A stretch of DNA of 64,000 bases from Dehalococcoidia bacterium (GTDB taxonomy: Bacteria; Chloroflexota; Dehalococcoidia; SM23-28-2; RBG-16-64-32). The translations under genes and the position numbers were made by a program. The notes below the pieces were generated by a model that saw only the letters and a list, made by a program, of their open reading frames with translations, had not been told where the DNA came from and did no database searches. Shown piece after piece: positions 20,035 through 58,747 of this stretch; the stretch's first letter is position 1; each line of letters begins with the position of its first letter. The stretch covers positions 13,760-77,759 of the forward strand of contig JBBDNA010000013.1 of the NCBI GenBank assembly GCA_040877915.1, in the 5' to 3' direction.

Positions 20035-20218
20035 TGTCATGCTGAGCGCCGACAACGGTCTGGCGCGGCCGTACGCATCTCCGCGAAGGTATCTGGGGAG
20101 GGGCCAGCGCTGGCACGTCGGCGGCACTCTCCCCTGTCATTCTGAGCGGCCACCACGCCCGCTCGGCAGAGGACGATGTTCGCGAAGGCCTGTCCTGAGC
20201 CTGTCGAAGGGAATCTGG
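20035..20218 (+). repeat. Two tandem family-A repeats (TGTCATTCTGAGCG-N33/34-GCGAAGGAATCT); the second carries a nested family-B unit
   Basis: Copies start at 20035 and 20135; same arms at 21240, 55710, 56667 and 58614. Confidence 0.85.
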
Positions 20219-20357
20219 TATTGGGCCGACGCCCGCCGCGGGACGCTCTACCCGGCTTGCCGTTTCAACCCGCAGACAGCAGCCGCCCCTTGACACCGAC
20301 CCCGCGAAACCCGTATTCGTTATCTCATTGCACCAGCGCAGCTTGAAGGAGGCTCCC

Positions 20358-21173
20358 ATGCCTGACAGGATCACCGTAGGCAACGTCGAGATCATAGCGC
20401 TCCTGGACACCCCCATGAACTTCCCCTGGGCCGCATTCTTCCCCGCCATCGACCAGGCGGAGTTCGAGCCCTACCGCGACCTCTATCCCGATAGCTTCAA
20501 CCCCAACGGCACCTTCCAGACCTACGCCCAGTGCTCCGCCTTGCGCTCCGGCGGCAAGGTCGTCCTCGTGGACACCGGCGTCGGTCCGGGGATGAACGGT
20601 AAGCTGCTGGAGGACATGAACGGCAAGGGTGTTCCCGCGGCGTCCGTCGATCTCGTCGTCTTCACCCACCTCCACCCCGACCACGTGGGCTGGAACATCA
20701 TGCCGGACAAGACCCCCGCCTTCCCCAAGGCCCGCTACCTCGTCCCCCAGGCGGACTGGGACGCCGCGGTCGGCGGCAACCCCGCCGTCGCCGGCCCTCA
20801 CTTCAGCGGCCAGGTCCAGCCGCTCCAGGACGTGGACCGGCTCGACCTCTTCTCCGGCGAGCACGCCGTCACCGACGACATCACGGCGGTCCCCACCCCC
20901 GGCCACACGCCCGGACACAGCAGCTTCGTGGTCGCCTCCGCAGGCGAGAAGGCGATCATCACCGGCGACCTCGCCCACCACCCCGCCCAGGTCGATCGCC
21001 CTGAGTGGTGCTCCGGTTTCGACAGCGATCCCCAGACGGCGATAGCCAGCCGTACGAAGGTACTCGACCAACTGGAGTCGGAGGGTGTCGTCGCCCGGAT
21101 AAACCACTTCCCGCCGCCGGGCCTCGGCAAGATCGTGAGGCTGGAAGGTAAGCGCGTCTTCCAGGCGCTCTGA
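20358..21173 (+). CDS. MBL-fold metallo-hydrolase
   Basis: VDTG, THLHPDHVG, PGHTPGH, GDLAH; SD AAGGAGG. Confidence 0.92.
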   Translation: MPDRITVGNVEIIALLDTPMNFPWAAFFPAIDQAEFEPYRDLYPDSFNPNGTFQTYAQCSALRSGGKVVLVDTGVGPGMNGKLLEDMNGKGVPAASVDLVVFTHLHPDHVGWNIMPDKTPAFPKARYLVPQADWDAAVGGNPAVAGPHFSGQVQPLQDVDRLDLFSGEHAVTDDITAVPTPGHTPGHSSFVVASAGEKAIITGDLAHHPAQVDRPEWCSGFDSDPQTAIASRTKVLDQLESEGVVARINHFPPPGLGKIVRLEGKRVFQAL

Positions 21174-21239
21174 CGCCGGCAATGACAGGGGGGACGTACC
21201 TTCGGGTTACACAACTCGCGGCTACGTCTTTGCCCCTCA

Positions 21240-21307
21240 TGTCATTCTGAGCGGCTACGCGGTTGTGCGTGGGCAGGCGTATCTCCGCGAAGGAATCTGG
21301 GGTGGGG
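21240..21307 (+). repeat. Family-A repeat copy
   Basis: TGTCATTCTGAGCG-33 nt-GCGAAGGAATCTGGGGTGGGG. Confidence 0.85.
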
Positions 21308-21426
21308 TTAACGCGCGGGCGTAAGCATAGCTGCGGGTTTTACTCCGCAGGGGGCAAAGAGTCCCGCCGGGGGCAAACAGTAGCGAGGGCTGAAGCCCTC
21401 AGCTTTGAGAGCGATTCTGCAGGGCG

Positions 21427-22509
21427 CTAGCTCGCCGCCGCCGTCTCCGCGAAGAAGTGCTGCACGCTCGTCTTCGCCGCCACCTTCTGCGCGATCTCCC
21501 CAATCGCCACCGACACCGGCGACTCCGGCTCGCTGACCACGATGGGCGTGCCCGCGTCCGCCCCCTCGCGCACCCGCACGTCCAGCGGGATCTCGCCCAG
21601 GAAGTCCAGCCCCAGCTCCTCCGCCGCCTCCCGCGCGCCACCGTGCCCGAAGATGTCCGTCCGCTCGCCGCAGTGCGGGCAGGCGAAGAAGCTCATGTTC
21701 TCCACCACGCCGAACACCGGCACCTGCAGCTTCTCGAACATCGTCACCGCCTTCATGGCGTCCTCCAGCGACACCGCGTTTGGTGTCGTGACGATGACCG
21801 TCCCCGCGATCGGCGCCTCCTGCGCCATGCTCATCGAGGCGTCGCTCGTCCCCGGCGGCAGGTCGATTATCAGGTAATCCAGCTCGCCGTCCTCGCCCCA
21901 GGGCAGGTCGTGCAGCAGCTGCCGCACCCCCGTCCCGATCATCGGGCCGCGCCAGACCACCGCCAGCCCCTTCTTCAATACAAACCCGATCGAGGCCAGC
22001 TTTATCCCGTAGCGCTCGATGATCGCCAGGCCGGAGTCTGCCTGGAAGCCGGCGCCCACGCCCAGCATCGTCGGAACGTTAGGGCCGGTCAGGTCCGCGT
22101 CGCACAGCCCCACCCGCGCCCCGAACCCCTTCAGCGCCAGCGCCAGGTTCACCGCCACCGTGGATTTCCCCACGCCCCCCTTGTTCGACGCCACGGCGAT
22201 GATGTTGCGCACCCCATCCACCGGCCGCTGCCCGCGCATCGCCGTCTGCCGCACCTCCGCGTCCATGGTTACCTCGGCCCGCTCCACGCCGGGAATAGCC
22301 AGCAGCAGCTCCTCCGCCTCCCGCTTCATCTGCTCGCGTACCGGACAGGCCGGCGTCGTCAGCACGATCCGCACCGACACGCTGTCGCCGTCGATGACGA
22401 TCTCCTCCTCCTTGACGAACCCCAGGCTCACGATGTCGCGGTGCAGGTCCGGGTCCTGAATCTTGCTCAGCGCCGAAAGTATCGCTTCGCGGCTGACCTC
22501 GCTGGCCAT
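21427..22509 (-). CDS. apbC: Mrp/NBP35 Fe-S cluster carrier ATPase
   Basis: N-terminal DPDLHRDIVSLG/TTPACP, KGGVGKST, VWRGPM, DLPPGT, ENMS-CPHC. Confidence 0.93.
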   Translation of the reverse strand: MASEVSREAILSALSKIQDPDLHRDIVSLGFVKEEEIVIDGDSVSVRIVLTTPACPVREQMKREAEELLLAIPGVERAEVTMDAEVRQTAMRGQRPVDGVRNIIAVASNKGGVGKSTVAVNLALALKGFGARVGLCDADLTGPNVPTMLGVGAGFQADSGLAIIERYGIKLASIGFVLKKGLAVVWRGPMIGTGVRQLLHDLPWGEDGELDYLIIDLPPGTSDASMSMAQEAPIAGTVIVTTPNAVSLEDAMKAVTMFEKLQVPVFGVVENMSFFACPHCGERTDIFGHGGAREAAEELGLDFLGEIPLDVRVREGADAGTPIVVSEPESPVSVAIGEIAQKVAAKTSVQHFFAETAAAS

Positions 22510-23165
22510 TATCTGCCTCCCTTTCGGTCGCCATCTGCCTTCACGATGAAACAGCAGGACTGCGCCCCCTTGCTCATGAACTGGCTGCACTGCACGTCCC
22601 CGCCCAGCAGCCCGCTGAGCAGTGACAGGTGCCAGTCGCACAGGTCCGAGTCCAGCTCCGCCACGCGGCGGTACACGCAATTGTAGTCCGTGATCTCGAA
22701 GCCGCCGTCCACTGCCCGCCACTCCGCGAACCCGCCCTCATCGTCCAGCATCTTTGCTACCGCCGCTACCCGCTCCGGTAGCGCTCGTCCCTCTAGCCGC
22801 GACCCGTATCGCGTCTGCAGCTGGCCGGCCATCTTCTCGAACAGCAACCCCTTCTTCTGCGCCGGCGTCAACCCGGCGATCTCCTCCGCCTCCAGCCGCG
22901 ACACCTCGTCCAGGAGCAGCCCGGCCAGCCGGTCGTAGCGCTTGGGGAACGTCTCCTCGCCGCGGTCGGTCAGGTTGTACACCAGGTGCGGCCGGCCCGT
23001 GGCCCGCCTCACCTGGTGCGATTGCACGAAGCCGTCGCGTTCCAGCACCGCCAGGTGCTGTCGCACCGTCATCTTCGCAACGCCGATACCCTCCGCCAGC
23101 TTAGCGATGGAGCTCCCGCCGCTCCGCTTCAGGCTGGCCAGAATCGCGCTTTTCGTCGTCTGCAT
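22509..23165 (-). CDS. HTH transcriptional regulator, SufR-like/ArsR family
   Basis: TVRQHLAVLERDG, GRP-YNLT, FPKRY, NC-x12-C...CC; coupled to apbC. Confidence 0.82.
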   Translation of the reverse strand: MQTTKSAILASLKRSGGSSIAKLAEGIGVAKMTVRQHLAVLERDGFVQSHQVRRATGRPHLVYNLTDRGEETFPKRYDRLAGLLLDEVSRLEAEEIAGLTPAQKKGLLFEKMAGQLQTRYGSRLEGRALPERVAAVAKMLDDEGGFAEWRAVDGGFEITDYNCVYRRVAELDSDLCDWHLSLLSGLLGGDVQCSQFMSKGAQSCCFIVKADGDRKGGR

Positions 23166-23253
23166 GCTAACTTTCGGCCCTTGTGGCCGTTATAAGTATA
23201 CACAAGCGAAGGGCGACAAGTAATGCGTTTCACAATTATATACAGAATAAACC

Positions 23254-23282
23254 TTGACACCTCTTTCAAACGGACATATAAT
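23254..23282 (+). promoter_or_regulatory. Perfect consensus sigma70 promoter
   Basis: TTGACA-17 nt-TATAAT in an AT-rich divergent intergenic region. Confidence 0.8.
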
Positions 23283-23361
23283 CCGAAGTCCTTCGTTGTA
23301 ACGTATACAGCTTAGGACACATCCTACAGAGAAAGGAATCCGAATCCAGGAGGTGGCAGTG

Positions 23362-23700
23362 ATGGGTAAGGCGGCAGTCAGAGAACGGCCGAAGAGCGCC
23401 GCCCCCGAGACCAACGGCCACGCGCCCGCCGAAAACGGCGCCGTGGCGGTTCAGACCGGTGGCTGCGTACACCACTGGCTCATCGATACCCCCAGAGGCT
23501 CGATGAGCTCCGGGCGCTGCAAGCGCTGCGGCGAGGTCCGCGAGTTCCGCAACTCCGCGACCGACTACATCTGGGACGACGACTCCTCGTCCGGATACCA
23601 CAGCTGGGGCGGTATGCGCTCCGCTCCCAAGGCAGCTTCCGACGACGAGGACGGCATCGCCGCCGCGCCTTCCGGCGCGGCAGTCGCCATCGCCGTCTAG
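23362..23700 (+). CDS. Small hypothetical zinc-ribbon protein
   Basis: CVHHW...CKRC; SD AGGAGG. Confidence 0.75.
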   Translation: MGKAAVRERPKSAAPETNGHAPAENGAVAVQTGGCVHHWLIDTPRGSMSSGRCKRCGEVREFRNSATDYIWDDDSSSGYHSWGGMRSAPKAASDDEDGIAAAPSGAAVAIAV

Positions 23701-23803
23701 CTTCCGTTCGAGCACAGGCAGCGGCGGCACGGGACGCGACCACGCGTCCCGTGCCGCCGTTCGCTATCCTCGGCGACGGCTCGCCCCGTATAATCGGAGC
23801 GGA

Positions 23804-24739
23804 GTGAACCTCAGCGTAGACCTCGCCGCCGGACGCAAGACCGCACTCTCCCTTTCCAACCCCGTCATGACCGCCTCCGGCACCTTCGCCAACGGCCTGG
23901 AGTACGCCCGCGTCTTCGATATCCAGAGACTCGGCGCCATCGTCAGCAAGGCCGTCACTCTCAAGCCCCGCCGCGGCAACGTCCAGCCCCGCATCGCCGA
24001 GACCGCCGCCGGCATGATCAACTCCATCGGCCTCCAGAATATCGGCCTCGAGGCCATCCTCCGCGACGTCGCCCCCGTCTGGGACACCTGGACAGTCCCC
24101 GTCGTCGCCAACATCGCCGGCGAGACCGTCGCCGACTACGCCGCGCTGGCCCGCCGCCTGGACGGCGTCCCCGGCGTCGCCGCGCTCGAGATGAACATCA
24201 GCTGCCCCAACGTCGACGAGGGCCTGGAGTTCGGCTCCAGCCCTCGCGCCGCCGCCGAGGTCGTCGAAGCCACCCGCCGCTCGACGACTCTGCCCCTCAT
24301 CGTCAAGCTCACGCCCAACGCCGCCGACATCGTCGCCGTCGCCCGCGCCGTCGCCGACGCCGGCGCCGACGCCCTCACCGTCATCAACACCTTCCCCGCC
24401 GTGCGCATCGACGTCGAATCCCGGCGTCCCGCCCTGGGCTGGGGGTCCGGCGGCCTCTCCGGGCCCGCCCTCAAGCCCATCGCCGTCAAGATGGTCTACG
24501 AAGTCGCCTCCGCCGTCGTCGTCCCCGTCATCGGCTGCGGCGGCATCGAGACCGGCGAGGACGCCGTCGAGTACCTCATGGCCGGCGCCACCTCCGTCCA
24601 GGTCGGCACCGCCACCTTCCGCAACCCCCGCGCCCCCCTCGACGTCCTGGAGGGGTTCGAAGCCTGGATGCGCGACCACGCCGTCGAGGACGTCCGCGAG
24701 ATCATCGGCGCCGCCCAGCCCGCCGAAAACCCCGCGTAG
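23804..24739 (+). CDS. pyrD: Dihydroorotate dehydrogenase (family 1B) catalytic subunit
   Basis: NPVMTASGT, NSIGLQN, NISCPN, VKLTPN, GGLSGP. Confidence 0.96.
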   Translation: MNLSVDLAAGRKTALSLSNPVMTASGTFANGLEYARVFDIQRLGAIVSKAVTLKPRRGNVQPRIAETAAGMINSIGLQNIGLEAILRDVAPVWDTWTVPVVANIAGETVADYAALARRLDGVPGVAALEMNISCPNVDEGLEFGSSPRAAAEVVEATRRSTTLPLIVKLTPNAADIVAVARAVADAGADALTVINTFPAVRIDVESRRPALGWGSGGLSGPALKPIAVKMVYEVASAVVVPVIGCGGIETGEDAVEYLMAGATSVQVGTATFRNPRAPLDVLEGFEAWMRDHAVEDVREIIGAAQPAENPA

Positions 24740-24749
24740 GCTCCCGCGC

Positions 24750-24893
24750 GTAGGGGCGACCTTCAGGTCGCCCGTTGGGTGGGGCTCGTAGCTGCAGGGC
24801 TTCAGCCCTGGATAGGCTGACGAAGGCCGCAATGTAGGCGGGTAGCTTCAGCTGCCCGCAACAGCGTGTCGGGGTCTCAAGACCCCGACCTAC
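24750..24893. repeat. Cluster of four GTAG-headed REP-like palindromes
   Basis: GTAGGGGCGACCTTCAGGTCGCCC, GTAGCTGCAGGGCTTCAGCCCTG, GTAGGCGGGTAGCTTCAGCTGCCCGC and inverted GTCGGGGTCTCAAGACCCCGACCTAC. Confidence 0.8.
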
Positions 24894-24936
24894 ATCCGCT
24901 CATCCTGGGCGCACCTTCCCTCAGTGCGGCAATACC

Positions 24937-25410
24937 TCACGCCTCCGGCGTCGCCTCTTCCGGCGCACTACCTTCCGGCGTCGCGCTACCCTCCCCCTCC
25001 TCCGGCGTCGTCTCTCCCGTCGCCGCCGCGCCCGGCCTCCGCTCCGGCGATATCTTGCACGCCCCCGATTCCAGCGGCTCGCAGCTCTCTACCCGCGCCC
25101 TCGACCCCGGCGCGTCCGGCACCCGCATCACCACCACTATATCCTGCGACTCGAAGCAGATGGGGCACACGCACTCGGCCTTCCACTCCCCGCTCGCCCC
25201 GTCGAACTCCACGGCCTCGCACGCCGACTTCTCGCCCAGCCCCTTCGCCACGCCGATCAGGTGCTCTTTGGCTAGCGCCTTGATTTGCGATTCAGCCTGC
25301 TGCGGCGTCGCCTCGCTCGCGGGCGAACCCGTGCCGCCGTCGTCCGATTCGCAGGCCAGCGCCAGCAGCGCCACGGCGATCACGGCGGCGCATACGAACC
25401 ACGTCTTCAC
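24937..25410 (-). CDS. Putative lipoprotein
   Basis: Signal peptide with LALAC lipobox; Cys-rich core, PEG/ATP-rich tail. Confidence 0.7.
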   Translation of the reverse strand: MKTWFVCAAVIAVALLALACESDDGGTGSPASEATPQQAESQIKALAKEHLIGVAKGLGEKSACEAVEFDGASGEWKAECVCPICFESQDIVVVMRVPDAPGSRARVESCEPLESGACKISPERRPGAAATGETTPEEGEGSATPEGSAPEEATPEA

Positions 25411-25485
25411 GCCCTCGATTATATTCGAACGCAGGCCAGGTTCGTTTGACCCCCTGCTCGCCTCGGCCCTAAGATTGAAGCCGGA

Positions 25486-25563
25486 CGGGGTGTAGCTCAG
25501 TCAGGTTAGAGCGCCTGGTTTGGGGCCAGGAGGCCGGCGGTTCGAATCCGCCCACCCCGACCA
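25486..25563 (+). tRNA. tRNA-Pro(TGG)
   Basis: CGGGGTG/CACCCCG acceptor stem, CCTGG-TTTGGGG-CCAGG anticodon arm, GGTTCGAATCC T-loop, encoded CCA. Confidence 0.97.
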
Positions 25564-25570
25564 TCCTAAG

Positions 25571-25975
25571 TCACTCCCCCGCCAGCTGTTCCGCCCCCGT
25601 CACCCGCCAGCTCAGGTCCTCCCGCAGCTCCAGCGTCAGCTCCCAGCGCTCTGCTTCGCCCTTCCGGATCACCTCGATCGTCCCGCTCGTGTCCTCAAAC
25701 TCCCCGGTCGAAAAGTAGATACACACCTTCCCCCTCGCCTCCAGCGAGTCCTCGGTCGCCTCGCAGCCCAGCGGATCGCTCATCTGGTACGCCCTCCCGT
25801 CCAGCCCCCCGCCCGTCACGTAGTCGACGATCGCCGCTGTCGACGATTGCTTCTCGCCCGGCTCCGGCGTCGGTTGCGGGGAAGCGCTGGGCGAACCGCT
25901 GCCGCCGCACGCCGCGGCCAGGAGCGCGACCGCGACGATGAGCCCCGCCGGCCCGGATATCCTGCACATCGCCAT
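25571..25975 (-). CDS. Putative lipoprotein
   Basis: LLAAAC lipobox, Pro/Ser linker. Confidence 0.65.
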   Translation of the reverse strand: MAMCRISGPAGLIVAVALLAAACGGSGSPSASPQPTPEPGEKQSSTAAIVDYVTGGGLDGRAYQMSDPLGCEATEDSLEARGKVCIYFSTGEFEDTSGTIEVIRKGEAERWELTLELREDLSWRVTGAEQLAGE

Positions 25976-26040
25976 CCATTCTACCAACCGTTCCCGCCCC
26001 GGCGCTTGACCCCCCGCCACGCCCGCCGTAGCCTGACGCC

Positions 26041-26724
26041 GTGACCGTCAGCAAGATCATCGCCGACCGCCGCCGCGTCCGCCGTCTCGTCACCTTCGTC
26101 AAACCCCGCGCCTCCGACCGCGTCCTCGACGTCGGCACCGGCATGCTCGCCTTCGCCTTCGCTCCCAAAGCCCGCGAGGTCCACGCCCTGGAGTGGGACC
26201 TGCGACCCCGTCGCCCCGCCAACGTCATCCTCGAGCCCGGCGACGCCCACGAGCTCCGCTACCCCGACGACTGCTTCGACCTCGTCGTCTGCGGACCCTC
26301 CTTTCACCACCTCACCCACCCCCGCCTCGTCGTCAAGCAGATGGGCCGCGTCGCCGTCCCCGGCGGCCGCATCGTCATCGAGGACATCATCGCCTCCGAG
26401 CAGGCCGCCCGCGCCCGCTACCAGGACCGGCTGGAGCGCCTGCGCGACCGCTCCCACCCCGGCTACCTCCGCCTCAGCCAGATCATCGCCTACTGCGGCG
26501 AAGCCGGCCTCCGCGTCCGCTCCATCCAGGTCCACGACCTGCCCCGCGAGTTCAATGAGTGGCTCGTCGGCCATCGCTCCTCCCCCGCCCGCATCGAGCA
26601 CATCCGCCGCCTCATGGTCGGCGGCGCCGAGGCCGACCTCGCCGGCCTCGAAGTCCGCCCCGTGGACGACACGATTATCTTCACCCAGCAGATCGCCTCC
26701 CTCGTCGCCGAGAAGCGCGAGTAG
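26041..26724 (+). CDS. Class I SAM-dependent methyltransferase
   Basis: VLDVGTG, GDAHEL-DDCFDLV, SFHH, PGG. Confidence 0.85.
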   Translation: MTVSKIIADRRRVRRLVTFVKPRASDRVLDVGTGMLAFAFAPKAREVHALEWDLRPRRPANVILEPGDAHELRYPDDCFDLVVCGPSFHHLTHPRLVVKQMGRVAVPGGRIVIEDIIASEQAARARYQDRLERLRDRSHPGYLRLSQIIAYCGEAGLRVRSIQVHDLPREFNEWLVGHRSSPARIEHIRRLMVGGAEADLAGLEVRPVDDTIIFTQQIASLVAEKRE

Positions 26725-27057
26725 CGCACCGGCGGCCCCCTGTAGGCGTGTGTATTAGCGGCCTTCATAGCCTGCTGCCCTGAGCCTGCCGAAGGGTCGA
26801 TGGGACGAGCCCCTGCTGACCCTCGCCACCGCCACCTCGTCCACGAGACGCCGGAAGGGTAACTTTTCCAGCGTTCACCCCGTCTACAGGTGCAGACGGA
26901 AGGTCTACACTTTACCTACAGACATGGCTACAAGACAGAGCGGACCCCGCAGACGCCCGGCCCCTCCCCACGTCCAGGAGAACGCCAAGCGCGCTCGCGC
27001 CCGCCCCTCCGAGCGCGCCCGGCCCCCTAACCAGCCGCGGCGAGGAGGCAAGCGCTC

Positions 27058-27987
27058 GTGACCCTCCCCATCCGCCCCGGCTGGCCCACCTTCTTCGGCG
27101 CGCCCCCCGCCGAGGACCCCGAAGCCGTCCGCGCCGACGTCGCCGTCCTCGGCATCCCCTTCGACGCCGGCACGAACGACCGGCCCGGCGCCCGCTTCGG
27201 CCCCCTGGGCGTCCGCGAAGCCTCCATGCGCCTCGCGCCCGTCAACGGCGACGATGGCGCTGGCTGGCTCGACGCCGAGTCCGGCCAGACGCTCCTCCGC
27301 GGCGTCTCCATCGTCGACGCCGGCGACGTCGACATCCGCACCATCAGCCTGGAGGACAACTTCGGCCGCATCACGGAGGCCGCCGCCTTCCTCCGCTCCC
27401 GCTGCCGCCTACCCGTCTTCGTCGGCGGCGACCATGCCGTCACCTTCCCCCTCGTCCGCGCCTTCGAGAACGGCCCCCTCACCGTCGTCCAGTTCGACGC
27501 CCACCAGGACTACACCGACGACAAGTACGGACAGCGCTTCTCCCACGACAACCAGATGCGCCGCATCAGCGAGCTCACCTTCGTCCAGCGCATCGTCCAG
27601 GTCGGCCTGCGCGGCGCCCTGGAGCACGCCGAGCCCTACCGCGCGGCGGTCCGCGACGGCGTCCAGACCGTCACCAGCGAGCGCATCGTCCGCGACGGCG
27701 TCGAGCTGGCTCTCGCAGATGTCCACCCCGAGGGCGACACCTACGTCACGATCGACATCGACATCCTCGATCCGGCGACCGCTCCCGGCACCGGCTTCCC
27801 GGAGCCGGGCGGCATCGGCTATTACCAGCTGAAGGACGCGCTGCTCCTCATCGCCCGCCGCTCCCGCGTCATCGCCTTCGACCTCTGCGAGGTCAACCCC
27901 ACCTACGACTCCGCCGGCGTCACCGCCCGCATCGCCTCGCGGTTGATGCTCGACCTCATGGGAGCGATAATTCCCTCTGTGGAGTAG
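27058..27987 (+). CDS. speB: Agmatinase/ureohydrolase family protein
   Basis: RPGARFGP, GGDH, DAHQD, TIDIDILDP-APGTG-PEPGG. Confidence 0.85.
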   Translation: MTLPIRPGWPTFFGAPPAEDPEAVRADVAVLGIPFDAGTNDRPGARFGPLGVREASMRLAPVNGDDGAGWLDAESGQTLLRGVSIVDAGDVDIRTISLEDNFGRITEAAAFLRSRCRLPVFVGGDHAVTFPLVRAFENGPLTVVQFDAHQDYTDDKYGQRFSHDNQMRRISELTFVQRIVQVGLRGALEHAEPYRAAVRDGVQTVTSERIVRDGVELALADVHPEGDTYVTIDIDILDPATAPGTGFPEPGGIGYYQLKDALLLIARRSRVIAFDLCEVNPTYDSAGVTARIASRLMLDLMGAIIPSVE

Positions 27988-28002
27988 AGCTCCAGGGAGG
28001 AT

Positions 28003-28209
28003 ATGGAAGACAGCCCGCCGCCGCCGGAACCGGAAGTCCCGTTCTACATCATCATCGCCCGAATCCTTATCGTCTCCGTCATGTCCTTCGCCGGCGCCGC
28101 CGCCATCTTCTTCTTCGTCGGAGGCGTCTGGCAGGTCGGCCTGCCCGCCCTCGGCCTGTGCCTCGTGTTCATGGGCCTCATGTTCCTCGTCGAACGCGCC
28201 GCCGCCTGA
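28003..28209 (+). CDS. Small 2-TM membrane protein
   Basis: SD GGGAGG; hydrophobic 68 aa. Confidence 0.7.
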   Translation: MEDSPPPPEPEVPFYIIIARILIVSVMSFAGAAAIFFFVGGVWQVGLPALGLCLVFMGLMFLVERAAA

Positions 28210-28259
28210 CGCTGCGCGGTGTGGTAAGCTGATTGCAGAGACCCAACGGAGGCGATGAT

Positions 28260-28472
28260 ATGCCGTTCCTGATATTCCAGAGCCTCGGCGCGCCCGAGCT
28301 CCTCATCATCCTGGGGATAGTCGTCGTGCTGTTCGGCGCCAGCCGTATCGGCGATATCGGCGGCTCCATCGGCCGCGGCATCCGCGAGTTCCGCCGCGAG
28401 GTCAAGGAAGGCGAGAAGGAACCCGGCGACGACAAGTCCGCCGCTGAGACCTCCGGAGAGAAGAAAGCCTGA
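28260..28472 (+). CDS. tatA: Twin-arginine translocase TatA/E subunit
   Basis: GAPELLIILGIVVVLFG...GRGIREF. Confidence 0.93.
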   Translation: MPFLIFQSLGAPELLIILGIVVVLFGASRIGDIGGSIGRGIREFRREVKEGEKEPGDDKSAAETSGEKKA

Positions 28473-28490
28473 ACCTGGGGCGCAAACGCG

Positions 28491-28523
28491 AAGGCCGGCC
28501 GTTACGCAACGGCCGGCCTTTTT
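28491..28523 (+). terminator. Intrinsic terminator
   Basis: AAGGCCGGCCGTT-loop-AACGGCCGGCCTTTTT. Confidence 0.85.
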
Positions 28524-28539
28524 CGATGTCCGTTAATCG

Positions 28540-29349: not shown

Positions 29350-29487
29350 CGCGAATCACCTCGCTAGTCTCGATGGGTGCTTTCAGTATATCAAGGCCTG
29401 TATCGGACGGCTATCGGCTGTAACATCGCCAGGGCCAAAGCATCCTTATATTGACCAAGTGGCACGACAGAGAAAGGTTTACTAATT

Positions 29488-29754: not shown

Positions 29755-29777
29755 CCACCACCCCAGAAAAATACGCG

Positions 29778-29802
29778 AGGCCCCCTATCGAGGGGGCCTT
29801 TC
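29778..29802. terminator. Terminator between convergent genes
   Basis: AGGCCCCCT-ATCG-AGGGGGCCT-TTC. Confidence 0.75.
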
Positions 29803-29821
29803 TTCGTCTGTCCGGTCGGAC

Positions 29822-30697: not shown

Positions 30698-30699
30698 CC

Positions 30700-43239: not shown

Positions 43240-43436
43240 GTAGGGGGCGATCTTCTGAGCCTGTCGTGAGCATCGCCATCCCAATGTAGGGGCGACCTTC
43301 AGGTCGCCCGCAGAGCCTGCCCTGAGCTTGTCGAAGGGCGAGGCCCGCCAGCCCCGCTCGTCCTGAGCCCATCGAAGGGCGAGGCCCGCTAGCCCTGCTC
43401 GTCCTGAGCCTGTCGAAGGGCGAGGCCCGCTAGCCC
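43240..43436. repeat. REP cluster: two GTAG REPs plus three tandem family-B units of about 40 bp
   Basis: CCTGAGC-N3-TCGAAGGGCGAGGCCCGC x3; GTAGGGGCGACCTTCAGGTCGCCC at 43286. Confidence 0.85.
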
Positions 43437-45067: not shown

Positions 45068-45095
45068 GCTTGGCGCGGCCTCAGCTGCGCGTCGT

Positions 45096-49484: not shown

Positions 49485-49506
49485 CGCGCCGCCCGGTCGG
49501 GCGACC

Positions 49507-51705: not shown

Positions 51706-51788
51706 GTTTTCACGCCAAGTTTAGCACCTCCTCCCCAGCTTTGCGCGTAGCGATGCCCTTCCTGTATGCTCGCCCAAGCGAGGAACCA

Positions 51789-53051
51789 ATGGCCAAGCAG
51801 TACAGGGCCCCCAGGGGCACCACAGACGTCCTCCCCCAGGACCAGCCCTACTGGGACCGCATCCGCGAGGCCGCCGCTCGCACATCCGCCCTCTTCGGCT
51901 ACGGACGCATCGAGATGCCGCTGTTCGAAGAGGCCGGCCTGTTCGCCCGCACCACCGGCGAGGCCACCGACATCGTCCAGAAGGAGATGTACGTCTTCGA
52001 GGACCGCGGCGGCCTTCAGCTCGCCCTCCGCCCTGAGGGCACACCCTCCGTCTGCCGCGCCTACCTGGAGCACGGCATGAGCAACCTGCCCCAGCCCGTC
52101 CGCCTCTGGTACTGGGGCTCCACCTTCCGCTACGACCGGCCCCAGGCCGGACGCTACCGCCAGTTCACCCAGTTCGGCTGCGAGGTCATCGGGGAACCCG
52201 ACGCCTCCGTCGACGCCGAGGTTATCGAGCTGCTGGTCCGCCTCTACGAGGACCTCGGTATCGGCGACCTCACCCTCTACCTCAACAGCATCGGCGACGG
52301 CGCCTGCCGTCCCGCCTACATCGAGGCCCTCCGCGCCTACTACGCCGGCAAACTCGATCGCGTCTGCGACGACTGCCGCGCCCGCTACGACCGCAACCCC
52401 CTCCGACTCCTCGACTGCAAGGTGGAGCGTTGCCAGCCCATCATCGCCGAAGCTCCCGCGGTCACCGACCACCTATGCGACCCCTGCGCCGGGCAGTTCG
52501 CCCGTCTCCAGGCCCTCCTCTCGGAGGTCGGCGTCGAATACGTCCACAACCCCCGCCTCGTCCGCGGGCTGGACTACTACACCCGCGCCGTCTTCGAGTT
52601 CCAGCCGAAGGACGAAGGCGCCCAGAGCACCGTGGGCGCCGGCGGCCGCTACGACGGCCTCATCGAGCTGCTGGGCGGCCGGCCCACCCCCGGCACCGGC
52701 TTCGCCACCGGCATCGAGCGCATCATCGCCAACATGAAACGTCTGGACCTTCCCGCCAACGACCCCCCGCGCCCCCGCGTCTACGTCGCCGTCCAGACCG
52801 ACGCCGCGCGCGCCGCCGCCTTCCGCCTCGCCTCCGACCTCCGACGTCAGGGCATCGCCGCCGTCGTCGCCTCCGGCGGACGCTCCCTCAAGGCCCAGAT
52901 GCGCCACGCCGACGCCCTCGGCGCCGAGTACGCCGCCATCATCGGCGAACGCGAGCTCGCCGACGCTACCGTCACCTCCCGCCGCCTCGCCGACGGCCAC
53001 CAGGAGACCGTCCCGATGGTGGACGCCGTGGCCCGGCTGACGCTGGACTAG
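51789..53051 (+). CDS. hisS: Histidine--tRNA ligase
   Basis: LRPEGT, RPQAGRYRQF, RGLDYY, GGRYDGL. Confidence 0.98.
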   Translation: MAKQYRAPRGTTDVLPQDQPYWDRIREAAARTSALFGYGRIEMPLFEEAGLFARTTGEATDIVQKEMYVFEDRGGLQLALRPEGTPSVCRAYLEHGMSNLPQPVRLWYWGSTFRYDRPQAGRYRQFTQFGCEVIGEPDASVDAEVIELLVRLYEDLGIGDLTLYLNSIGDGACRPAYIEALRAYYAGKLDRVCDDCRARYDRNPLRLLDCKVERCQPIIAEAPAVTDHLCDPCAGQFARLQALLSEVGVEYVHNPRLVRGLDYYTRAVFEFQPKDEGAQSTVGAGGRYDGLIELLGGRPTPGTGFATGIERIIANMKRLDLPANDPPRPRVYVAVQTDAARAAAFRLASDLRRQGIAAVVASGGRSLKAQMRHADALGAEYAAIIGERELADATVTSRRLADGHQETVPMVDAVARLTLD

Positions 53052-53216
53052 CGGGGGACTAGCGCGGGACTCGGCCGTCGGTGGGTGTTGGTGCGGCTAA
53101 TCTCAGACTAAACCCACAGACGCGTGGCGCATTTCAGTAGCAATGCGAACTTATGTTGTTGACCTTGTTTAGGCCGCATGCTATCATGGCACAAAATTAT
53201 TCCGAGGAGATGCCGC

Positions 53217-53924
53217 ATGCCGCCCAAAGCAATATTTCCAGCGTTTCCGGTGAACGAGGCGAGGAAGCTGGCTGACGTTATCGCCCAAAAGAACGCGGGG
53301 CAGCCCATGCGCCGCCTTGACGTCTTTCATGAACTTGGGAAGTCTCCAACGAGTGGTCCCAGCCGACAACTTGTAACGGCCTCGGGGGCATATGGCTTCA
53401 CGACGGGGAGTTACAACGCTGACAAGCTTGCGCTGACCGCCCTCGGCCGCAAGTTGGCTGTCGACGGGGACGCCGCAGGTATGATAGATGCGGTGCTGAA
53501 CGTTGACGTATTCAAGCGGTTCTTCGAGAAGTACAAGAACAACATGGTTCCAGCGGAAGTTGCTGCGAAGAGCTTCTTCGCAGACGAGGGGGTCCCTGCT
53601 GAGCGCACCCACGTGTGTTGGGAACTCGCCCTTGCCAATGGTCGCGCGACAGGATTGATTGAGAACGTTTCAGGTAGCGAACGTATCCTCACGCCCGATC
53701 ACGCTCTCGAGAAGAAGATGTCTGGGCCTCCAGCGGGTGCGAAAGAGAAAAGAAGCGAGCGGAACGCGCCGTCGTCAAAGGATGGTTCCAAGGAGGCAGA
53801 CCAGCCTCCCCAGCCGTCCTTTCACGTTGACATACAAATCCATATCGACTCCAGCGCCTCGGCGGAACAGATCGAGCAGGTCTTCGCCAGCATGGCTCGG
53901 CATATCTACCGGCGTGAGGGATGA
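53217..53924 (+). CDS. Lower-GC hypothetical protein (predicted wHTH-like N-terminus, PSFHVDIQIHI C-terminal domain)
   Basis: SD GAGGAG; coupled by ATGA to the next gene. Confidence 0.75.
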   Translation: MPPKAIFPAFPVNEARKLADVIAQKNAGQPMRRLDVFHELGKSPTSGPSRQLVTASGAYGFTTGSYNADKLALTALGRKLAVDGDAAGMIDAVLNVDVFKRFFEKYKNNMVPAEVAAKSFFADEGVPAERTHVCWELALANGRATGLIENVSGSERILTPDHALEKKMSGPPAGAKEKRSERNAPSSKDGSKEADQPPQPSFHVDIQIHIDSSASAEQIEQVFASMARHIYRREG

Positions 53925-54460
53925 GGAGTATCCCTGGGATCGAGGTCGGCACTGCAGCCGTCCAAGGGATTAGGGCCGCCGTTGTTGGCGTCGGTCTTCA
54001 CCGATCGCGCTCTGACGTTCCCGATACCCTCCAACTTGGGCCCATGCACCTATACGACGAGCTGATCACTGAGAGTGGGCTTCGAGAGGTTAGCCGCAGC
54101 CTGTTCGAAGATGGTCATTTCGCCCGCGCCGTGGAAGAAGCCTATAAGTTCCTAAACAACGAGGTGAAAAGGAGAGCTGGTTCAAATAAGGACGGTCCGG
54201 ACCTGATGCATCACGCTTTCAGTGAGGAAAAACCACTGCTAAAGCTGAACGCTCTACGGTCTACCTCAGAGAGAGACGAGCAGGCCGGCTACAGGTTCAT
54301 GTTCGCTGGTAGCATGTCGGGCGTTAGAAATCCGCGTGCGCACGAGCACGATCTTCGGGATCGGCGGGACGCAGCCCTAGAGCTGCTTGTGGCGGCGAAT
54401 CACTTACTCAGGATCCTGGGCAAGGCCAAGCGTGCCCGTCCGAGACGCGGCGGAGCCTGA
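53921..54460 (+). CDS. TIGR02391 (Ymh)-like protein with HEPN-type RxxxxH motif
   Basis: LF-DGHF-AVEEA-K, DG-DLM-AFS, S-RDEQ-G-MF-G-RNPRAHE. Confidence 0.85.
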   Translation: MRSIPGIEVGTAAVQGIRAAVVGVGLHRSRSDVPDTLQLGPMHLYDELITESGLREVSRSLFEDGHFARAVEEAYKFLNNEVKRRAGSNKDGPDLMHHAFSEEKPLLKLNALRSTSERDEQAGYRFMFAGSMSGVRNPRAHEHDLRDRRDAALELLVAANHLLRILGKAKRARPRRGGA

Positions 54461-54574
54461 TACGCTTCGCTTCGTGCTATAATCCTATCGGCCCCCATCC
54501 GGGGGCTTCCGCACGTAATGCGCCAGCCTTCCCCGACGGGCCCGTCCGGGCAGGCTGGGGTGGAGCGAACAGCC

Positions 54575-55648
54575 ATGTTCGATAAACTCGCCGCAATCCA
54601 GGCCCGATACGAAGAGCTAGAGCGCGAGATGGCCTCTCCCGAGGTCGTCGGCGACTTCGATCGCCTCCAGGCCCTCGCCCGCGAGCACTCCTCGCTCGAG
54701 GACACCGTCGCCATGTACCGCGAGCACCAGCGCCTGACGAAGGCCATCGAGGAGGCCCGCGCCATCGTCGCCGAGGGTGGCGACGATGAGTTCGTATCCC
54801 TCGCCCGCGACGAGATCGCCGAAAGCCAGTCCCGCATCGAGGAGCTGGAGGAGAAGCTGCGACTCGCCCTCGTCCCCAAAGACCCCTTCGCCGACAAAGA
54901 CGTCATCGTCGAGATCCGCGCCGCCGCCGGCGGCGACGAGGCGTCTCTGTTCGCCGGCGACCTCTACCGCATGTACACCCGCTACGCCGAGCGCCGCGGC
55001 TGGAGCGTTGAGCTCCTCAACTCCCACGAAAGCGATCTCGGCGGCTTCAAGGAGATCGTCTTCGAACTCCACGGCAAGGGCGCCTACTCCCGGCTCAAGT
55101 TCGAAAGCGGCGTCCACCGCGTCCAGCGCGTCCCCGTCACCGAGGCCTCCGGCCGCATCCACACCTCTACCGCCACCGTCGCCGTCCTCCCCGAGGCCGA
55201 CGACGTCGACGTCAAGATCGACGACAAGGACCTCCGTATCGACATCTTCAACGCCAGCGGCCACGGCGGCCAGAGCGTCCAGAAGAACGCCACCGCCATC
55301 CGTATCACCCACCTCCGCACCGGCATCGTCGCCGTCTGCCAGGACGAGCGCTCCCAGCTCAAGAACCGCAACAAGGCCATGGCCGTCCTCCGCGCCCGCC
55401 TCCTCGACCTCGAGCAGCGCAAGGCCCGCGAAGAGTTGGACTCCACCCGCCGCTCGCAGGTCGGCTCCGGCGAGCGCGCCGAGAAGATCCGCACCTACAA
55501 CGTCCCCCAGGACCGCGTCACCGACCACCGCATCGGCTACACCCGCCACAACCTCCCCTCCCTCCTGGACGGTGACATCGACGACATCATCGACGCCCTC
55601 CGGGAGGACGAGCAGTCCCGCGGCCTTCAGGATGGCGAAGCCGCGTAG
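54575..55648 (+). CDS. prfA: Peptide chain release factor 1
   Basis: HRVQRVPVTE (PxT), GGQ, RTYN-PQ-RVTDHRI. Confidence 0.97.
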   Translation: MFDKLAAIQARYEELEREMASPEVVGDFDRLQALAREHSSLEDTVAMYREHQRLTKAIEEARAIVAEGGDDEFVSLARDEIAESQSRIEELEEKLRLALVPKDPFADKDVIVEIRAAAGGDEASLFAGDLYRMYTRYAERRGWSVELLNSHESDLGGFKEIVFELHGKGAYSRLKFESGVHRVQRVPVTEASGRIHTSTATVAVLPEADDVDVKIDDKDLRIDIFNASGHGGQSVQKNATAIRITHLRTGIVAVCQDERSQLKNRNKAMAVLRARLLDLEQRKAREELDSTRRSQVGSGERAEKIRTYNVPQDRVTDHRIGYTRHNLPSLLDGDIDDIIDALREDEQSRGLQDGEAA

Positions 55649-55703
55649 GGGTGGCCTTTAGGTCGCCCGCCCCGGGTGCCCTGAGCGCCTCGAACCACGC
55701 GCC

Positions 55704-56654
55704 ATGGTCCGTCATTCTGAGCGATTCCGAGGTACCTTCGAGAAGCGCATGATATCTCTGAGCGAAGAATCTCGGCGAATCGCAGATCACCCCGCCCGGA
55801 GTGAGGGCCATCCCACCATCCGCCAGACCCTCCGCGACGCCGCCGACGCCCTCGCCGCCATCGGCTCGGATGAAGCCACCCTCGAGGCCGAGCTCCTCCT
55901 CGCCCACGCCCTCCACACGGACCGCGCCCACCTCTACCAGCGCCTCGCCGAGGATCTGGCCGAGGAGGCCGCCCGCGCCTTCGACGCCCTCCTCGCCCGG
56001 CGCCTCGTGCGCGAGCCCACCGCCTACATCCTGGGCCGCCGCGAGTTCTACGGCCTCGAACTTGAAGTTATCCCCGCCGCCATCATCCCCCGCCCCGACA
56101 CCGAGACCCTCGTCGACCTCGTCCTCGATTTCGCCCGTGGGCGCGGCGCCGTCTCCATCGCCGACGTCGGCACTGGCTCCGGCGCCATCGCCATCGCTCT
56201 GGCCGTCAACCTCCCGCAAGCCGAGATCACCGCCATCGACGTCTCCCCGGACGCCCTCGCCCTCGCCCGCCGCAACGCCCAGCGCCACGGCGTCGCCGAA
56301 CGCATCCGCTTCCTGGAGGGCGACCTGCTCGCCCCACTGGACGGTCGGGCCGACGTCATCGCCGCCAACCTCCCCTACGTCCCCAGCGCCGAGCTCCAGG
56401 CCGGTCCGCCCGAGATCCGCGAGCACGAGCCCCGCCTCGGTCTGGACGGCGGCCCCGACGGCCTCCGCCTCATCGAGCGCCTCGTCCGGCAGACCCCCGC
56501 CCGCCTCCGCCCCGGCGGCGCCCTGTTCGCCGAGATCGGCGACACCCAGGGCCCCGCCGTCCTCGCCCTCGCCCGCGCGGCCTTCCCCGCCGCCCGCGCC
56601 GAAGTTGCGCGAGACCTTGCCGGCCTCGACCGCGTCCTCGTCGTCGGCCTGTAG
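55704..56654 (+). CDS. prmC: Release factor glutamine methyltransferase (start uncertain)
   Basis: EP-AYILG-REFYG, IPRPDTE, DVGTGSG, ANLPY, LDGG-DGL; follows prfA. Confidence 0.93.
   Translation: MVRHSERFRGTFEKRMISLSEESRRIADHPARSEGHPTIRQTLRDAADALAAIGSDEATLEAELLLAHALHTDRAHLYQRLAEDLAEEAARAFDALLARRLVREPTAYILGRREFYGLELEVIPAAIIPRPDTETLVDLVLDFARGRGAVSIADVGTGSGAIAIALAVNLPQAEITAIDVSPDALALARRNAQRHGVAERIRFLEGDLLAPLDGRADVIAANLPYVPSAELQAGPPEIREHEPRLGLDGGPDGLRLIERLVRQTPARLRPGGALFAEIGDTQGPAVLALARAAFPAARAEVARDLAGLDRVLVVGL
55710..55776 (+). repeat. Family-A repeat, subfamily 2
   Basis: GTCATTCTGAGCGA-33 nt-CTGAGCGAAGAATCTCGGC. Confidence 0.85.
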
Positions 56655-56666
56655 CCCCACCTCAAC

Positions 56667-56733
56667 TGTCATTCTGAGCGATTCCGGACCACATCCGATG
56701 TTGGTGCAGCAGTACTGAGCGAAGAATCTCGGC
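56667..56733 (+). repeat. Family-A repeat, subfamily 2
   Basis: TGTCATTCTGAGCGA-33 nt-CTGAGCGAAGAATCTCGGC. Confidence 0.85.
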
Positions 56734-56767
56734 GCTCCCACAGACTACGCGGGCCTCTGCCACATCC

Positions 56768-56932
56768 CACCTCCTGCCGCGCTACCAGAAGTTCTACCGC
56801 GGCGCCTACGCCCCCGAGTACTACACCCGGCAGGTCATCGACAAGGTGAACGAGCTGCGCGACAAGTGGGGCCTCACCGCCCCCCGTCTCGCCGACCGGC
56901 CTCGCGCCGGCCAGCTACGTCTGGCGATGTGA
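56768..56932 (+). pseudogene. Orphan 3' gene fragment, resembling the C-terminus of a Rv2578c/SplB-like radical SAM protein
   Basis: HLLPRYQKFYRGAYAPEYY...LRDKWGL...GQLRLAM*; host-like codons, no start codon. Confidence 0.55.
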
Positions 56933-57989
56933 TCTCGGCGGGCGCGCCAGCGCCAGCACGAACCCGACGACGGTGACGGCGGTGAAAAACAGCACGGCCA
57001 TCCGCAGCAAGCGGGGGCGCGGGGGTGTCCCCCGCGTAGCCCGGCATGGCCTAGAACGTGGCGGCTAGTTGGGCTCCCATGCCGCCGAATAGAAGTAGGA
57101 CGCCTGTACCGAACACTGCGGCGCGTAGGCGATCCGGGCCTGCGAGCAGCTTATGGGCGAGTTGTGCGACGAATCGTGCGACGGCGTAAGACGCAACCAT
57201 ACTGCCTACAGTAGCCAAGGTAATTGGAAGACTCGGCGCGGCCAGCACCCGACCAGCAATTCGAGCGGTCCTACCACCCAACAAAGTCACAGCGTACCCA
57301 AGCGGCAGCATCAAACCGCTTACTCCTATGACTACGATCAAGGGCACGGCCGCTAGCGGCCCCCACAGCAGTGAAATGGCAATCGTAATTGCAGTAGTCA
57401 ACAAAATGATACCCACGAACTCGGCAAGTCGGGCGGGCCATCCGCCCTTTGACCAGTCGGGTGCGAGATATGGAAGAAACCGGCCGACAATGTAGCGCTC
57501 TGACACGGGGGCTGATCCGGCTGCTGGCGCAAGCAGGCGCTCCAAGCGCTTCTCAGCGTTGAAGATCCTCTCAATGCCTATGATTTCGGGTGCGATCAAG
57601 AGAAACGAAATGGCTTCCGCTATTATGCCGCCCCGGTTGGCCCACTCGGCGTCCATGGGCCGGATGGTAGGGGCGCCCGTGCCAGTAGGTCAATACAGCG
57701 GTAGCGCTTGCCGTACCTTGGGCGGTGAGGCGGGGCCACGGAACGCCGCGCGCGGCGCGAGGAACAGCTCGAAGAACGTCCTATCGTCGCCGAACCGATG
57801 GTGAACCCTCCCCAGCGGACAGTCGCCCCCGTTCGCCGCGAGGACCGCGCCCTCCACCAGCAGCGCCCCGCTCGCCGCTACGAGAATCGGGCCGCGCTTG
57901 CGCGCCAGGGCCGCGTAGTACACGTACGACAGGCAGCTGAGGAAGAAGACCGAGAACAGTGAGTGGAGGGCCCGGACGGCCAGTACCAT
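56915..57989 (-). pseudogene. Small membrane protein gene split by an insertion (5' part about 57745-57989, 3' part 56915-57004)
   Basis: ...NGGDCPL...FFELFLAPRAA // RMAVLFFTAVTVVGFVLALARP. Confidence 0.55.
57051..57656 (-). CDS. Lower-GC membrane protein with its own promoter
   Basis: 201 aa multi-TM; TTGACC-18-TACCAT just upstream of ATG. Confidence 0.7.
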   Translation of the reverse strand: MDAEWANRGGIIAEAISFLLIAPEIIGIERIFNAEKRLERLLAPAAGSAPVSERYIVGRFLPYLAPDWSKGGWPARLAEFVGIILLTTAITIAISLLWGPLAAVPLIVVIGVSGLMLPLGYAVTLLGGRTARIAGRVLAAPSLPITLATVGSMVASYAVARFVAQLAHKLLAGPDRLRAAVFGTGVLLLFGGMGAQLAATF

Positions 57990-58012
57990 GCCCGGGCGCG
58001 CGGGCTCAGAGC

Positions 58013-58405
58013 CTACGACCAGAACGCGTCGGTTTTCTGCGCGTCCTCGCTGAACGACCAGAACTCCGTGACCTTCCCGTCCTTCATGTGGTACACGTCG
58101 ACGTCGGCGGAGTCCAGCGTCCGGCCCTCGCGGCTCCCCTTCGCCCGCGTCAGCGATACGGTGTGGTCGTCGTTCGCCACCACATCGTGCACCTCTATAT
58201 TGAACGAGCCGCCGGTCAGCTCAACCGTCTTCGCGAATATCGCGAACACTGCGTCGCGGCCCTTATGCGTTCCTGCCAGCTGGTTGTTGCCGGACGCGTG
58301 CCACACCACGTCCTCCGCAAACAGGTTCGTCAGCGTCGCCATATCGCCCTTGGCGAACGCGGCGTAGCCGTCCTTCAGCAGCTTGGCGTTGGGATGATCA
58401 GCCAT
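58013..58405 (-). CDS. SnoaL/NTF2-like protein
   Basis: YAAFAKGD...LFAEDVVWH-G...DGKVTEFW; SD AAGGAGG. Confidence 0.9.
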   Translation of the reverse strand: MADHPNAKLLKDGYAAFAKGDMATLTNLFAEDVVWHASGNNQLAGTHKGRDAVFAIFAKTVELTGGSFNIEVHDVVANDDHTVSLTRAKGSREGRTLDSADVDVYHMKDGKVTEFWSFSEDAQKTDAFWS

Positions 58406-58559
58406 AGCGGGGCCTCCTTCTTGTTTCGGGTGGATACTGATGCGATAAGCTTAGCGACTCGCGGAAGCGCCTGTCTACGGCTCGTGCCCCTCGCCCGCTC
58501 GCTCTAACCGCTATCTAACCGCGGCCCCCGGTCTCATCGTGGGGGAAGAGCCTCGTCGC

Positions 58560-58747
58560 CTACCGCGACAGCTGGTAGACCTTCCCCTCGGTCTTTATCG
58601 ACGGCGCCACTGATGTCATTCTGAGCGTCGACGACGGTCGCTTGAGGCATCGAGGATTGCCGCGAAGGAATCTGGGGTGGGGAAGACTCGCGCGACGGGA
58701 ACGAAGGGCGCCTAGCGGGACAGCTGGTAGACCTTGCCCTCGGTCTT
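58560..58747 (-). repeat. Twice-repeated 36-bp gene 3' end (KTEGKVYQLSR*), att-like, flanking a family-A repeat (58614-58682)
   Basis: 58560-58595 vs 58712-58747: 33/36 identical, all three differences synonymous. Confidence 0.8.

Follow-up and report, generated by a model that had tools for sequence, protein, structure and literature searches.

Several kinds of small hairpin repeats and folded recognition sites have been described in bacterial genomes. Miniature inverted-repeat transposable elements (MITEs) such as Correia/NEMIS, ERIC and RUP are small non-autonomous repeats with inverted ends that lie near gene ends and are often co-transcribed. The ends of IS200/IS605 elements and the attC sites of integrons are recognised as a folded single strand with mismatches, an extrahelical base and a variable terminal structure, and insertion takes place beside a short sequence similar to an end of the element itself. 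In the REP/REPIN-RAYT systems, high-copy hairpins known as repetitive extragenic palindromes (REPs) accompany a single-copy gene for an HUH tyrosine transposase (RAYT), which lies between inverted hairpins and whose subfamily is matched to the repeat (features given in parts of PMC3116915 and PMC3337134), while a GTAG or CGTC tetranucleotide at the hairpin foot serves as the REP tag in a section of PMC3733652. Here, a comparable repeat family is reported from a 64,000-nt stretch of a Dehalococcoidia genome (GenBank assembly GCA_040877915.1, contig JBBDNA010000013.1, positions 13,760 to 77,759; hereafter the window), in which a preliminary description had noted six same-strand copies of two conserved arms around a variable core. 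It is suggested, with moderate confidence, that these copies are strand-specific hairpin repeats of the REP/RAYT kind, served in trans by a cognate enzyme from among the small, stand-alone UPF0213/YhbQ-type GIY-YIG nucleases.

As in REP/REPIN-RAYT systems, the repeats are high-copy extragenic imperfect palindromes (69 left arms and 158 short hairpins in a genome of 21 contigs, 2.14 Mb and 68% G+C, with 62 of the 69 placed between genes by a GC3-based caller), their ends are conserved and their middle, though less so, keeps a constant length, they are retained in related genomes, and a single-copy enzyme gene of matching subfamily lies between inverted hairpins. In contrast to these systems, the product of the flanked gene is no HUH tyrosine transposase but a GIY-YIG nuclease of ca. 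95 amino acids, the hairpins lack a GTAG or CGTC tag, the stem has two adjacent G·A mismatches, and the RAYT of the genome is tied to other hairpins. The resemblance to MITEs lies in the small size, the inverted ends (the arms are imperfect inverted repeats), the insertion polymorphism and the location near gene ends, but neither a DDE-transposase parent nor a short target duplication was seen, the unit measures 65-95 nt with short forms that consist of a single 25-nt hairpin, the duplications found at two loci are long and involve gene ends, and the sole related unit bearing a gene carries GIY-YIG. With IS200/IS605 ends and attC sites the repeats share a mismatched stem with an extrahelical base, and nested copies always follow CGAAG; they differ in having an unrelated consensus and no TnpA or IntI partner, although intI was not searched for, and in being dispersed rather than assembled in cassette arrays. 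Finally, the GNA-triloop DNA mini-hairpins reportedly described by Hirao and colleagues concern the stability of oligonucleotides and not genomic repeats; the short forms found here likewise close with a C-G pair, which encloses a G-N-A loop with any base at N, while the long-loop copies of the window have no triloop.

Arms, stem and terminal loop

In the window, the pattern GTCATKCTGAGCG-N20-50-GCGAAG has six matches, all on the plus strand (at 20036, 20136, 21241, 55711, 56668 and 58615), against none in 100 shuffles, and all six copies noted before are thereby recovered (Table 1). The core lengths of 34, 33, 33 and 34 nt given for the first of two subfamilies (here type A, with a long loop and a G-rich tail) were confirmed, as was the 33-nt core flanked by two CTGAGCGA in the second (type B). 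The core-less repeat mentioned in the preliminary description is real (type C), with four copies in this genome and 104 in an Acidobacteriaceae metagenome-assembled genome (MAG), where they are solo short GTCAT hairpins with G-N-A loops (GAA, GCA, GGA and GTA were all seen). Genome-wide, the 69 left arms divide into 47 of type A, 12 of type B, 4 of type C and 6 others; type B loops start with YYCCGAAC and are followed by the tail CTCGGCG, and a profile search retrieved 62 near-full-length type A copies. Beyond the right arm, with which the preliminary description closes the copies, type A elements continue for ca. 30 nt with a G-rich tail, GGGGnGGGG, that is 80-90% conserved. Before GTCAT, the only bases that stand out in the position profile are T(-1) and C(-2).

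Complementary to each other, the two arms form one stem around a variable terminal loop. Pairing between AUUCUGAGCG on the left and CGCGAAG[G]GAAU on the right yields a stem of 10 bp that includes two adjacent G·A mismatches and from which a single G bulges out (A4-U11', U5-A10', U6-A9', G8' bulged, C7-G7', U8-A6', G9·A5', A10·G4', G11-C3', C12-G2', G13-C1'). This scheme is fixed by the arm variants, which are largely compensatory. Among 174 copies from this genome and from fetched loci, both arms are canonical in 137 and compensatory changes were seen at four stem positions: T/A to C/G (ca. 10 copies), G/C (3) or G/T (2) at 6/9', C/G to G/C (2) at 7/7', A/T to G/C (2) at 4/11' and T/A to C/G (1) at 8/6'; uncompensated single changes occur in ca. 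10 copies. Pairing, and not sequence, is therefore what is conserved. RNAalifold applied to 73 copies predicts the arm helix and no other. The arms, given as nearly invariant in the preliminary description, are not invariant: the left arm is variant in 13 of the 62 near-full-length genome copies. In copy 2, moreover, the right arm is split into GCGAAG and GGAATCT by a short hairpin of 22 nt nested between them (20188-20209). The outcome that had been named as refuting the preliminary interpretation, an ordinary decayed MITE or REP, comes close to what was found as far as the MITE/REP-like character is concerned, but the arms are not decaying, being maintained by the constraint on the stem.

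The same stem core occurs in short hairpins, defined as CTGAG-N5-6-CGAAG, of which the genome holds 158; those with other covarying outer stems are referred to as the sister family. Where ca. 335 pairs of CTGAG and CGAAG within 60 nt would be expected, 573 were counted, and their spacing peaks at N5-6 (158) and N36-38 (74). Around the invariant core the outer stems vary yet remain complementary (GCTCGTC...GGCGAGC, GCA...TGC, GTCATT...AATC and GTCACC...GGTC). In the stems of 86 short hairpins, G·T pairs (53) largely exceed A·C pairs (10), which identifies the folding strand as the one that reads CTGAG...CGAAG. The comparison was extended to 41 relatives, 251 members of the class Dehalococcoidia and 4 extra genomes reached via individual loci, one of them in another phylum. 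The sister-family motif is present in 29 of the 41 relatives, and the type A pattern in 15 (13 of the 24 of the same family and 1 of the 16 of other families; a reversed-pattern control gave none). Within a CUGAG...CGAAG hairpin superfamily that extends over at least two phyla, the window elements form a branch with long loops that is specific to their lineage.

The core is the terminal loop of this stem. Its length is 33-35 nt in 140 of 169 unique copies, so that the fixed length given for it stands, but within this lineage only: among the GTCAT-type hairpins of 59 loci that were picked for their GIY-YIG genes and not for loop length, the loops measure 3, 5 (9 cases), 11, 15, 20 (3) and 37-38 nt (4), and all four of the longest come from genomes of this family, which makes the fixed length a founder trait of one lineage. 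Nor is the core free sequence, as had been supposed. Over 146 copies, its first 9 nt (SCGACCACG) are semi-conserved (50-80%) and its last 12-15 nt nearly random. In one copy from an Anaerolineaceae MAG, canonical arms surround an A+T-rich loop of 34 nt; loop base composition may follow the host genome.

Other structures were considered for the core. A conserved fold inside the core was ruled out, and so was a pseudoknot between core and tail, as the cores alone fold no better than shuffles (mean z of +0.08, 146 copies), mutual information over 75 copies reveals the arm pair and no core helix, RNAalifold gives no further helix, and flank, core and tail pair no better with their own partners than with swapped ones (148 copies, p 0.25-0.75). 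Pairing of the C-rich upstream flank with the G-rich tail is generic (-18.6 kcal/mol for own and for swapped partners), and pairings seen by eye (GGGAAC/GUUCUC, a 9-bp core-tail match at one locus, L019, and left arm/CGCUCGG) were not borne out. Hammerhead, K-turn and box C/D readings of CUGA...GAA were rejected since the order of the motifs does not fit and no Rfam match was obtained: at gathering score, Rfam 15 finds only two tRNAs in the window, and nothing relevant in 19900-21500 at E values up to 10, so that no covariance model of a described structured RNA applies. A protein-coding core was dismissed because its length is not a multiple of three. True attC sites have the core sites R''/L''-L'/R' (RYYYAAC...GTTRRRY) and come with cassette arrays and intI. 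Integron cassettes were discarded in view of the neighbours, which are pyr, prfA, prmC and similar genes, and no attC-type core sites occur in the sequences of the window copies, no search for intI having been made.

GIY-YIG genes between inverted hairpins

The genome has three GIY-YIG matches and one Y1_Tnp match. The preliminary description had advised looking for a co-located GIY-YIG or other nuclease, and small GIY-YIG genes bracketed by such hairpins were indeed found. One of them (L104) encodes a 98-amino-acid protein, has inverted sister-family hairpins on either side and has homologues in 72 of the 251 Dehalococcoidia genomes. Its product matches the UPF0213 structures 1ZG2 and 1YWL, which relates it to the structure-selective nucleases Slx1, YhbQ and YazA (URI, GIY-YIG); the proteins found here are without any extra domain. 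YhbQ is grouped with the structure-selective nuclease Slx1 in a review (PMC7017083). A second gene (contig C6 of this genome, labelled G000; G000:C6:194290-194616) is preceded by a forward GTCAT hairpin, after which comes a G-rich stretch similar to the type A tail, and a hairpin in reverse orientation overlaps the 3' end of the gene. It is the one gene of this genome that belongs to the matching subfamily, termed alpha below, and lies outside the window, where the partner had been predicted to act from, no cas, integrase or transposase domain being present in the 53 window open reading frames (ORFs) that were scanned. NCBIfam has no family for either protein.

The association extends beyond this genome. 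In the 30 best loci from diverse Dehalococcoidia, the hairpins located no more than 300 nt away from the GIY-YIG gene number 56 (2.96/kb), against 11 in the other 70 kb (0.16/kb), i.e. a density ca. 19 times that of the more distant flanks and ca. 13 times the intergenic average of the window's genome (ca. 0.23/kb, derived from 106 hairpins in roughly 470 kb). At least one hairpin is present in 26 of the 30 loci, with forward and reverse orientations in a ratio of 20:4 upstream and 10:22 downstream. The enzyme subfamily follows the hairpin family: when 19 genes were typed by motif as alpha (YYVYIMTN...NPxWxDL) or beta (YVYILRC...GHTDDL), GTCAT-type hairpins were found beside all 6 alpha genes and none of the 13 beta genes, while the sister family lies beside 12 of the 13 beta genes. 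In one genome (G006), long-loop type A elements themselves bracket a GIY-YIG gene, and in the Acidobacteriaceae MAG one small GIY-YIG gene is located between forward and reverse hairpins that share a further 17 nt. The name GIY-YIG-associated tandem-G·A hairpin repeats is proposed for elements that combine a CUGAG...CGAAG core and a covarying outer stem, as all six window copies do, with a GIY-YIG gene bracketed by hairpins of the same family, as at G000:C6:194290-194616.

In the literature covered, mainly at the level of abstracts, no link was found between the UPF0213/YhbQ GIY-YIG family and dispersed repeats, nor an assigned function for stand-alone nucleases of this type, and exact-string literature searches with two arm strings returned unrelated primer matches only.

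The third GIY-YIG gene (L106, G000:C6:250350-251250) lies between tRNA-Ser(GCU) copies. The upstream one carries a 23-nt hairpin in its T-loop and is not called by ARAGORN; a partial tRNA copy with the same insert occurs past an N gap, and a degenerate type A element lies ca. 320 nt upstream. At another locus (L111, in G022:C2), the hairpins that flank an alpha-like GIY-YIG gene are of the GTCATTGCGAGC type. This hairpin family, GTCATTGCGAGC...GCGA(A/C)GCAATC, also adjoins a type A copy in the window's genome (G000:C12, near 298,300).

Insertion, proposed mechanism and alternatives

Long-loop copies usually follow a gene in the sense direction, the upstream gene sharing the strand of the copy in 49 cases against 12; likewise, the upstream gene is co-oriented for 73 of 106 intergenic short hairpins, against 33. 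Copies 1-3 (20035-21331) are missing at the same sites from ca. 90%-identical contigs of other metagenomes, which bridge window positions 20018-20308 and 21174-21423 with 35-40 other letters. At two loci, the inserted block lies between duplicated gene ends of ca. 30-60 nt. Where a 22-nt hairpin is nested in another element, it directly follows CGAAG of the host arm, as seen in all four strict cases of the genome and in one further case among the fetched loci. Two species of one genus provided an orthologous pair of copies that differ at 1 of 34 core positions, at no arm position and at 6 tail positions, with ca. 5% divergence in the flanking coding sequence; the core shows no sign of hypervariability in this one comparison.

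Other arrangements of the hairpins were also noted. At G000:C9:35672-35743, three 24-nt short hairpins (GCCTGTCCTGAGCGAAGTCGAAGG) stand head-to-tail with no spacer, which would fit repeated insertion after CGAAG. Tandem arrays with a unit of ca. 155 nt are located at G000:C6:113722-114240 and C12:197332-197640; in the former, the unit consists of a type A element together with a duplicated ribosome-binding site and the first ca. 13 codons of the downstream gene. The copy number of both arrays is uncertain because of N gaps inside them. In practice, the hairpins produce spurious ORF tails and break assemblies, several arrays ending in N gaps.

The analogy with REP/RAYT, the kinship of YhbQ with Slx1 (as given in part of PMC7017083) and the constant nesting after CGAAG together suggest how such a system might operate. 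The GIY-YIG nuclease would recognise the folded strand and cut it where the stem ends on the 3' side, directly behind CGAAG, whereupon solo hairpins would be spread by repair or copying to new sites, preferentially behind genes, where copies would persist with the stem under selection while the loop drifts. More tentatively, UPF0213/YhbQ nucleases at large might be the cognate enzymes of tandem-G·A hairpins in at least two phyla and constitute a second, HUH-independent system of REP/RAYT type, in which each enzyme subfamily would maintain a hairpin family of its own, cut after CGAAG at the foot of the stem and seed solo copies by the hundreds behind genes. If the link to the nuclease holds, a widespread family of small nucleases, members of which were solved in structural-genomics projects, would gain a testable function, a second independent and long-lived partnership of enzyme and repeat would stand beside REP/RAYT, and the recurrence of GTCATTCTGAGCG...GCGAAGAATC in the Chloroflexota searched and in one Acidobacteriaceae genome would be explained.

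A number of points weigh against the partnership with the nuclease. Cleavage and mobilisation are inferred from comparison. Of four further alpha-like genes found by homology, one has a related GTCATTGCGAG hairpin pair, one a degenerate hairpin, and two have no hairpin within 250 nt. An alpha-like gene (E <=1e-20) is present in 11 of the 15 genomes with type A elements and also in 8 of the 26 without them, the four misses being in genomes 71-89% complete, and the kin among the 41 relatives are not independent. A DNA nuclease by itself would not lead one to expect the sense orientation behind genes, which may indicate an added role at the RNA level or a reliance on read-through transcription, and the counts of placement are limited by the crude GC3-based gene caller. 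The empty sites differ over the entire intergenic stretch, and neither a clean target-site duplication nor an exact empty-site boundary was found. Finally, when 146 copies were folded with nearest-neighbour energies, the minimum-energy structure contained the arm helix in only 9, which is attributed here to the large loop and the mismatches.

The orientation behind genes is also what an RNA hairpin selected by the host would show, if it served at mRNA 3' ends as a stabiliser, processing site or terminator-like structure and if its tie to GIY-YIG genes were non-causal, these genes simply lying among abundant intergenic hairpins or borrowing them as insulators. Such an explanation would accommodate copy 4 inside the prfA-prmC operon and the tolerance of the stems for G·U pairs. 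It has parallels in REP, ERIC and Correia elements, which act in transcripts, and REPs are said to be presented as 3'UTR regulators in a 2026 bioRxiv preprint. It is nevertheless considered unlikely, since hairpins 3' of GIY-YIG genes are mostly antisense (10:22) and are therefore inverted terminal repeats rather than sense 3' hairpins, the nuclease subfamily tracks the hairpin family (6/6 against 0/13), hairpins are ca. 13 times denser near these genes than in the intergenic regions of the genome, no Rfam family matches, and a GNA triloop with adjacent sheared G·A pairs is the hallmark of unusually stable DNA, not RNA, hairpins. Very unlikely is that the copies are classical REPs mobilised by the single RAYT (Y1/HUH transposase) of the genome: a Y1_Tnp gene does exist (G000:C12:112238-112567) and the repeats are REP-like in being extragenic high-copy hairpins, but the arms lack a GTAG or CGTC tag, and that gene is flanked by another, GTAG-tagged family (GGGACAG hairpins, GTAGGGACAG...), not by GTCAT or CTGAG...CGAAG hairpins.

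Two further explanations came with the preliminary description and concern the core. The first, a duplex-DNA site at which a dimeric protein binds two half-sites about three helical turns apart, would account for the conserved arms and the narrow spacing (33-35 nt in 140 of 169 cores), but as stated it conflicts with the excess of G·T over A·C, which points to a single folding strand, with compensatory arm changes that keep pairing and not sequence, and with sister hairpins that have the same arms around loops of 3 to 20 nt, so that spacing is not required; it is judged highly improbable. Least credible of all is a guide or repeat-spacer-repeat cassette, with the core as an acquired sequence that directs a trans-acting effector. 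A variable sequence of fixed length between arms conserved across genera made this CRISPR-like reading tempting, but it is unsupported and has been removed: external matches had been expected of the cores, and window positions 20030-20230 match nothing in phage and plasmid collections; 13-mer matches elsewhere in the genome are not in excess (45 of 48 cores against 41.6 of 48 for shuffled cores); a single position of 34 distinguishes the cores of the one orthologous pair; the copies owe the 5' part of their cores to common descent; the length is fixed only in this lineage; the left and right arms are different sequences, complementary to each other and not identical direct repeats; and no cas gene occurs among the 53 ORFs scanned.

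Copies in the window and their neighbours

The window copies and the related short hairpins are listed in Table 1.

Table 1. Long-loop copies and sister-family hairpins located in the window (positions counted from its first nucleotide)
Feature	Position	Strand	Remarks
Copy 1, type A long-loop hairpin	20035..20120	+	left arm with G at stem position 6, 34-nt loop, G-rich tail
Copy 2, type A	20135..20245	+	33-nt loop; right arm interrupted after GCGAAG by the hairpin at 20188-20209
Copy 3, type A	21240..21331	+	33-nt loop; 67 nt past the stop of a metallo-beta-lactamase-fold gene
Copy 4, type B	55710..55777	+	between prfA (RF-1) and prmC; stem without bulged G
Copy 5, type B	56667..56734	+	begins 13 nt past the prmC stop
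Copy 6, type A	58614..58705	+	34-nt loop
Short hairpin, sister family	26772..26802	+	CTGAG-N5-CGAAG with covarying outer stem
Three tandem short hairpins, sister family	43314..43426	+	period of 41 nt; between convergent trehalose-phosphate synthase/phosphatase genes

Copy 1 begins 13 nt past the stop of a PyrK-like gene, and its right arm reads GGTATCT, which corresponds to a G·U pair. In copy 4, the loop starts with TTCCGA and the tail is CTCGGCG. The neighbours are housekeeping genes (the pyr operon and genes for RF-1, PrmC, Mrp, RelA/SpoT and HisRS), and copy 6 is the only one of the six that is not directly 3' of a co-oriented called gene. Just 3' of copy 6, an ORF of 548 amino acids (58995-60641) has the nuclease domain of a terminase large subunit and may be a prophage remnant.

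Finally, the GTAG-tagged hairpins (GTAGGGACAG..., with TGAA/TTTA loops) form a separate REP family, of which one copy was detected in the window at ca. 21381-21404 and other copies adjoin several type A elements.

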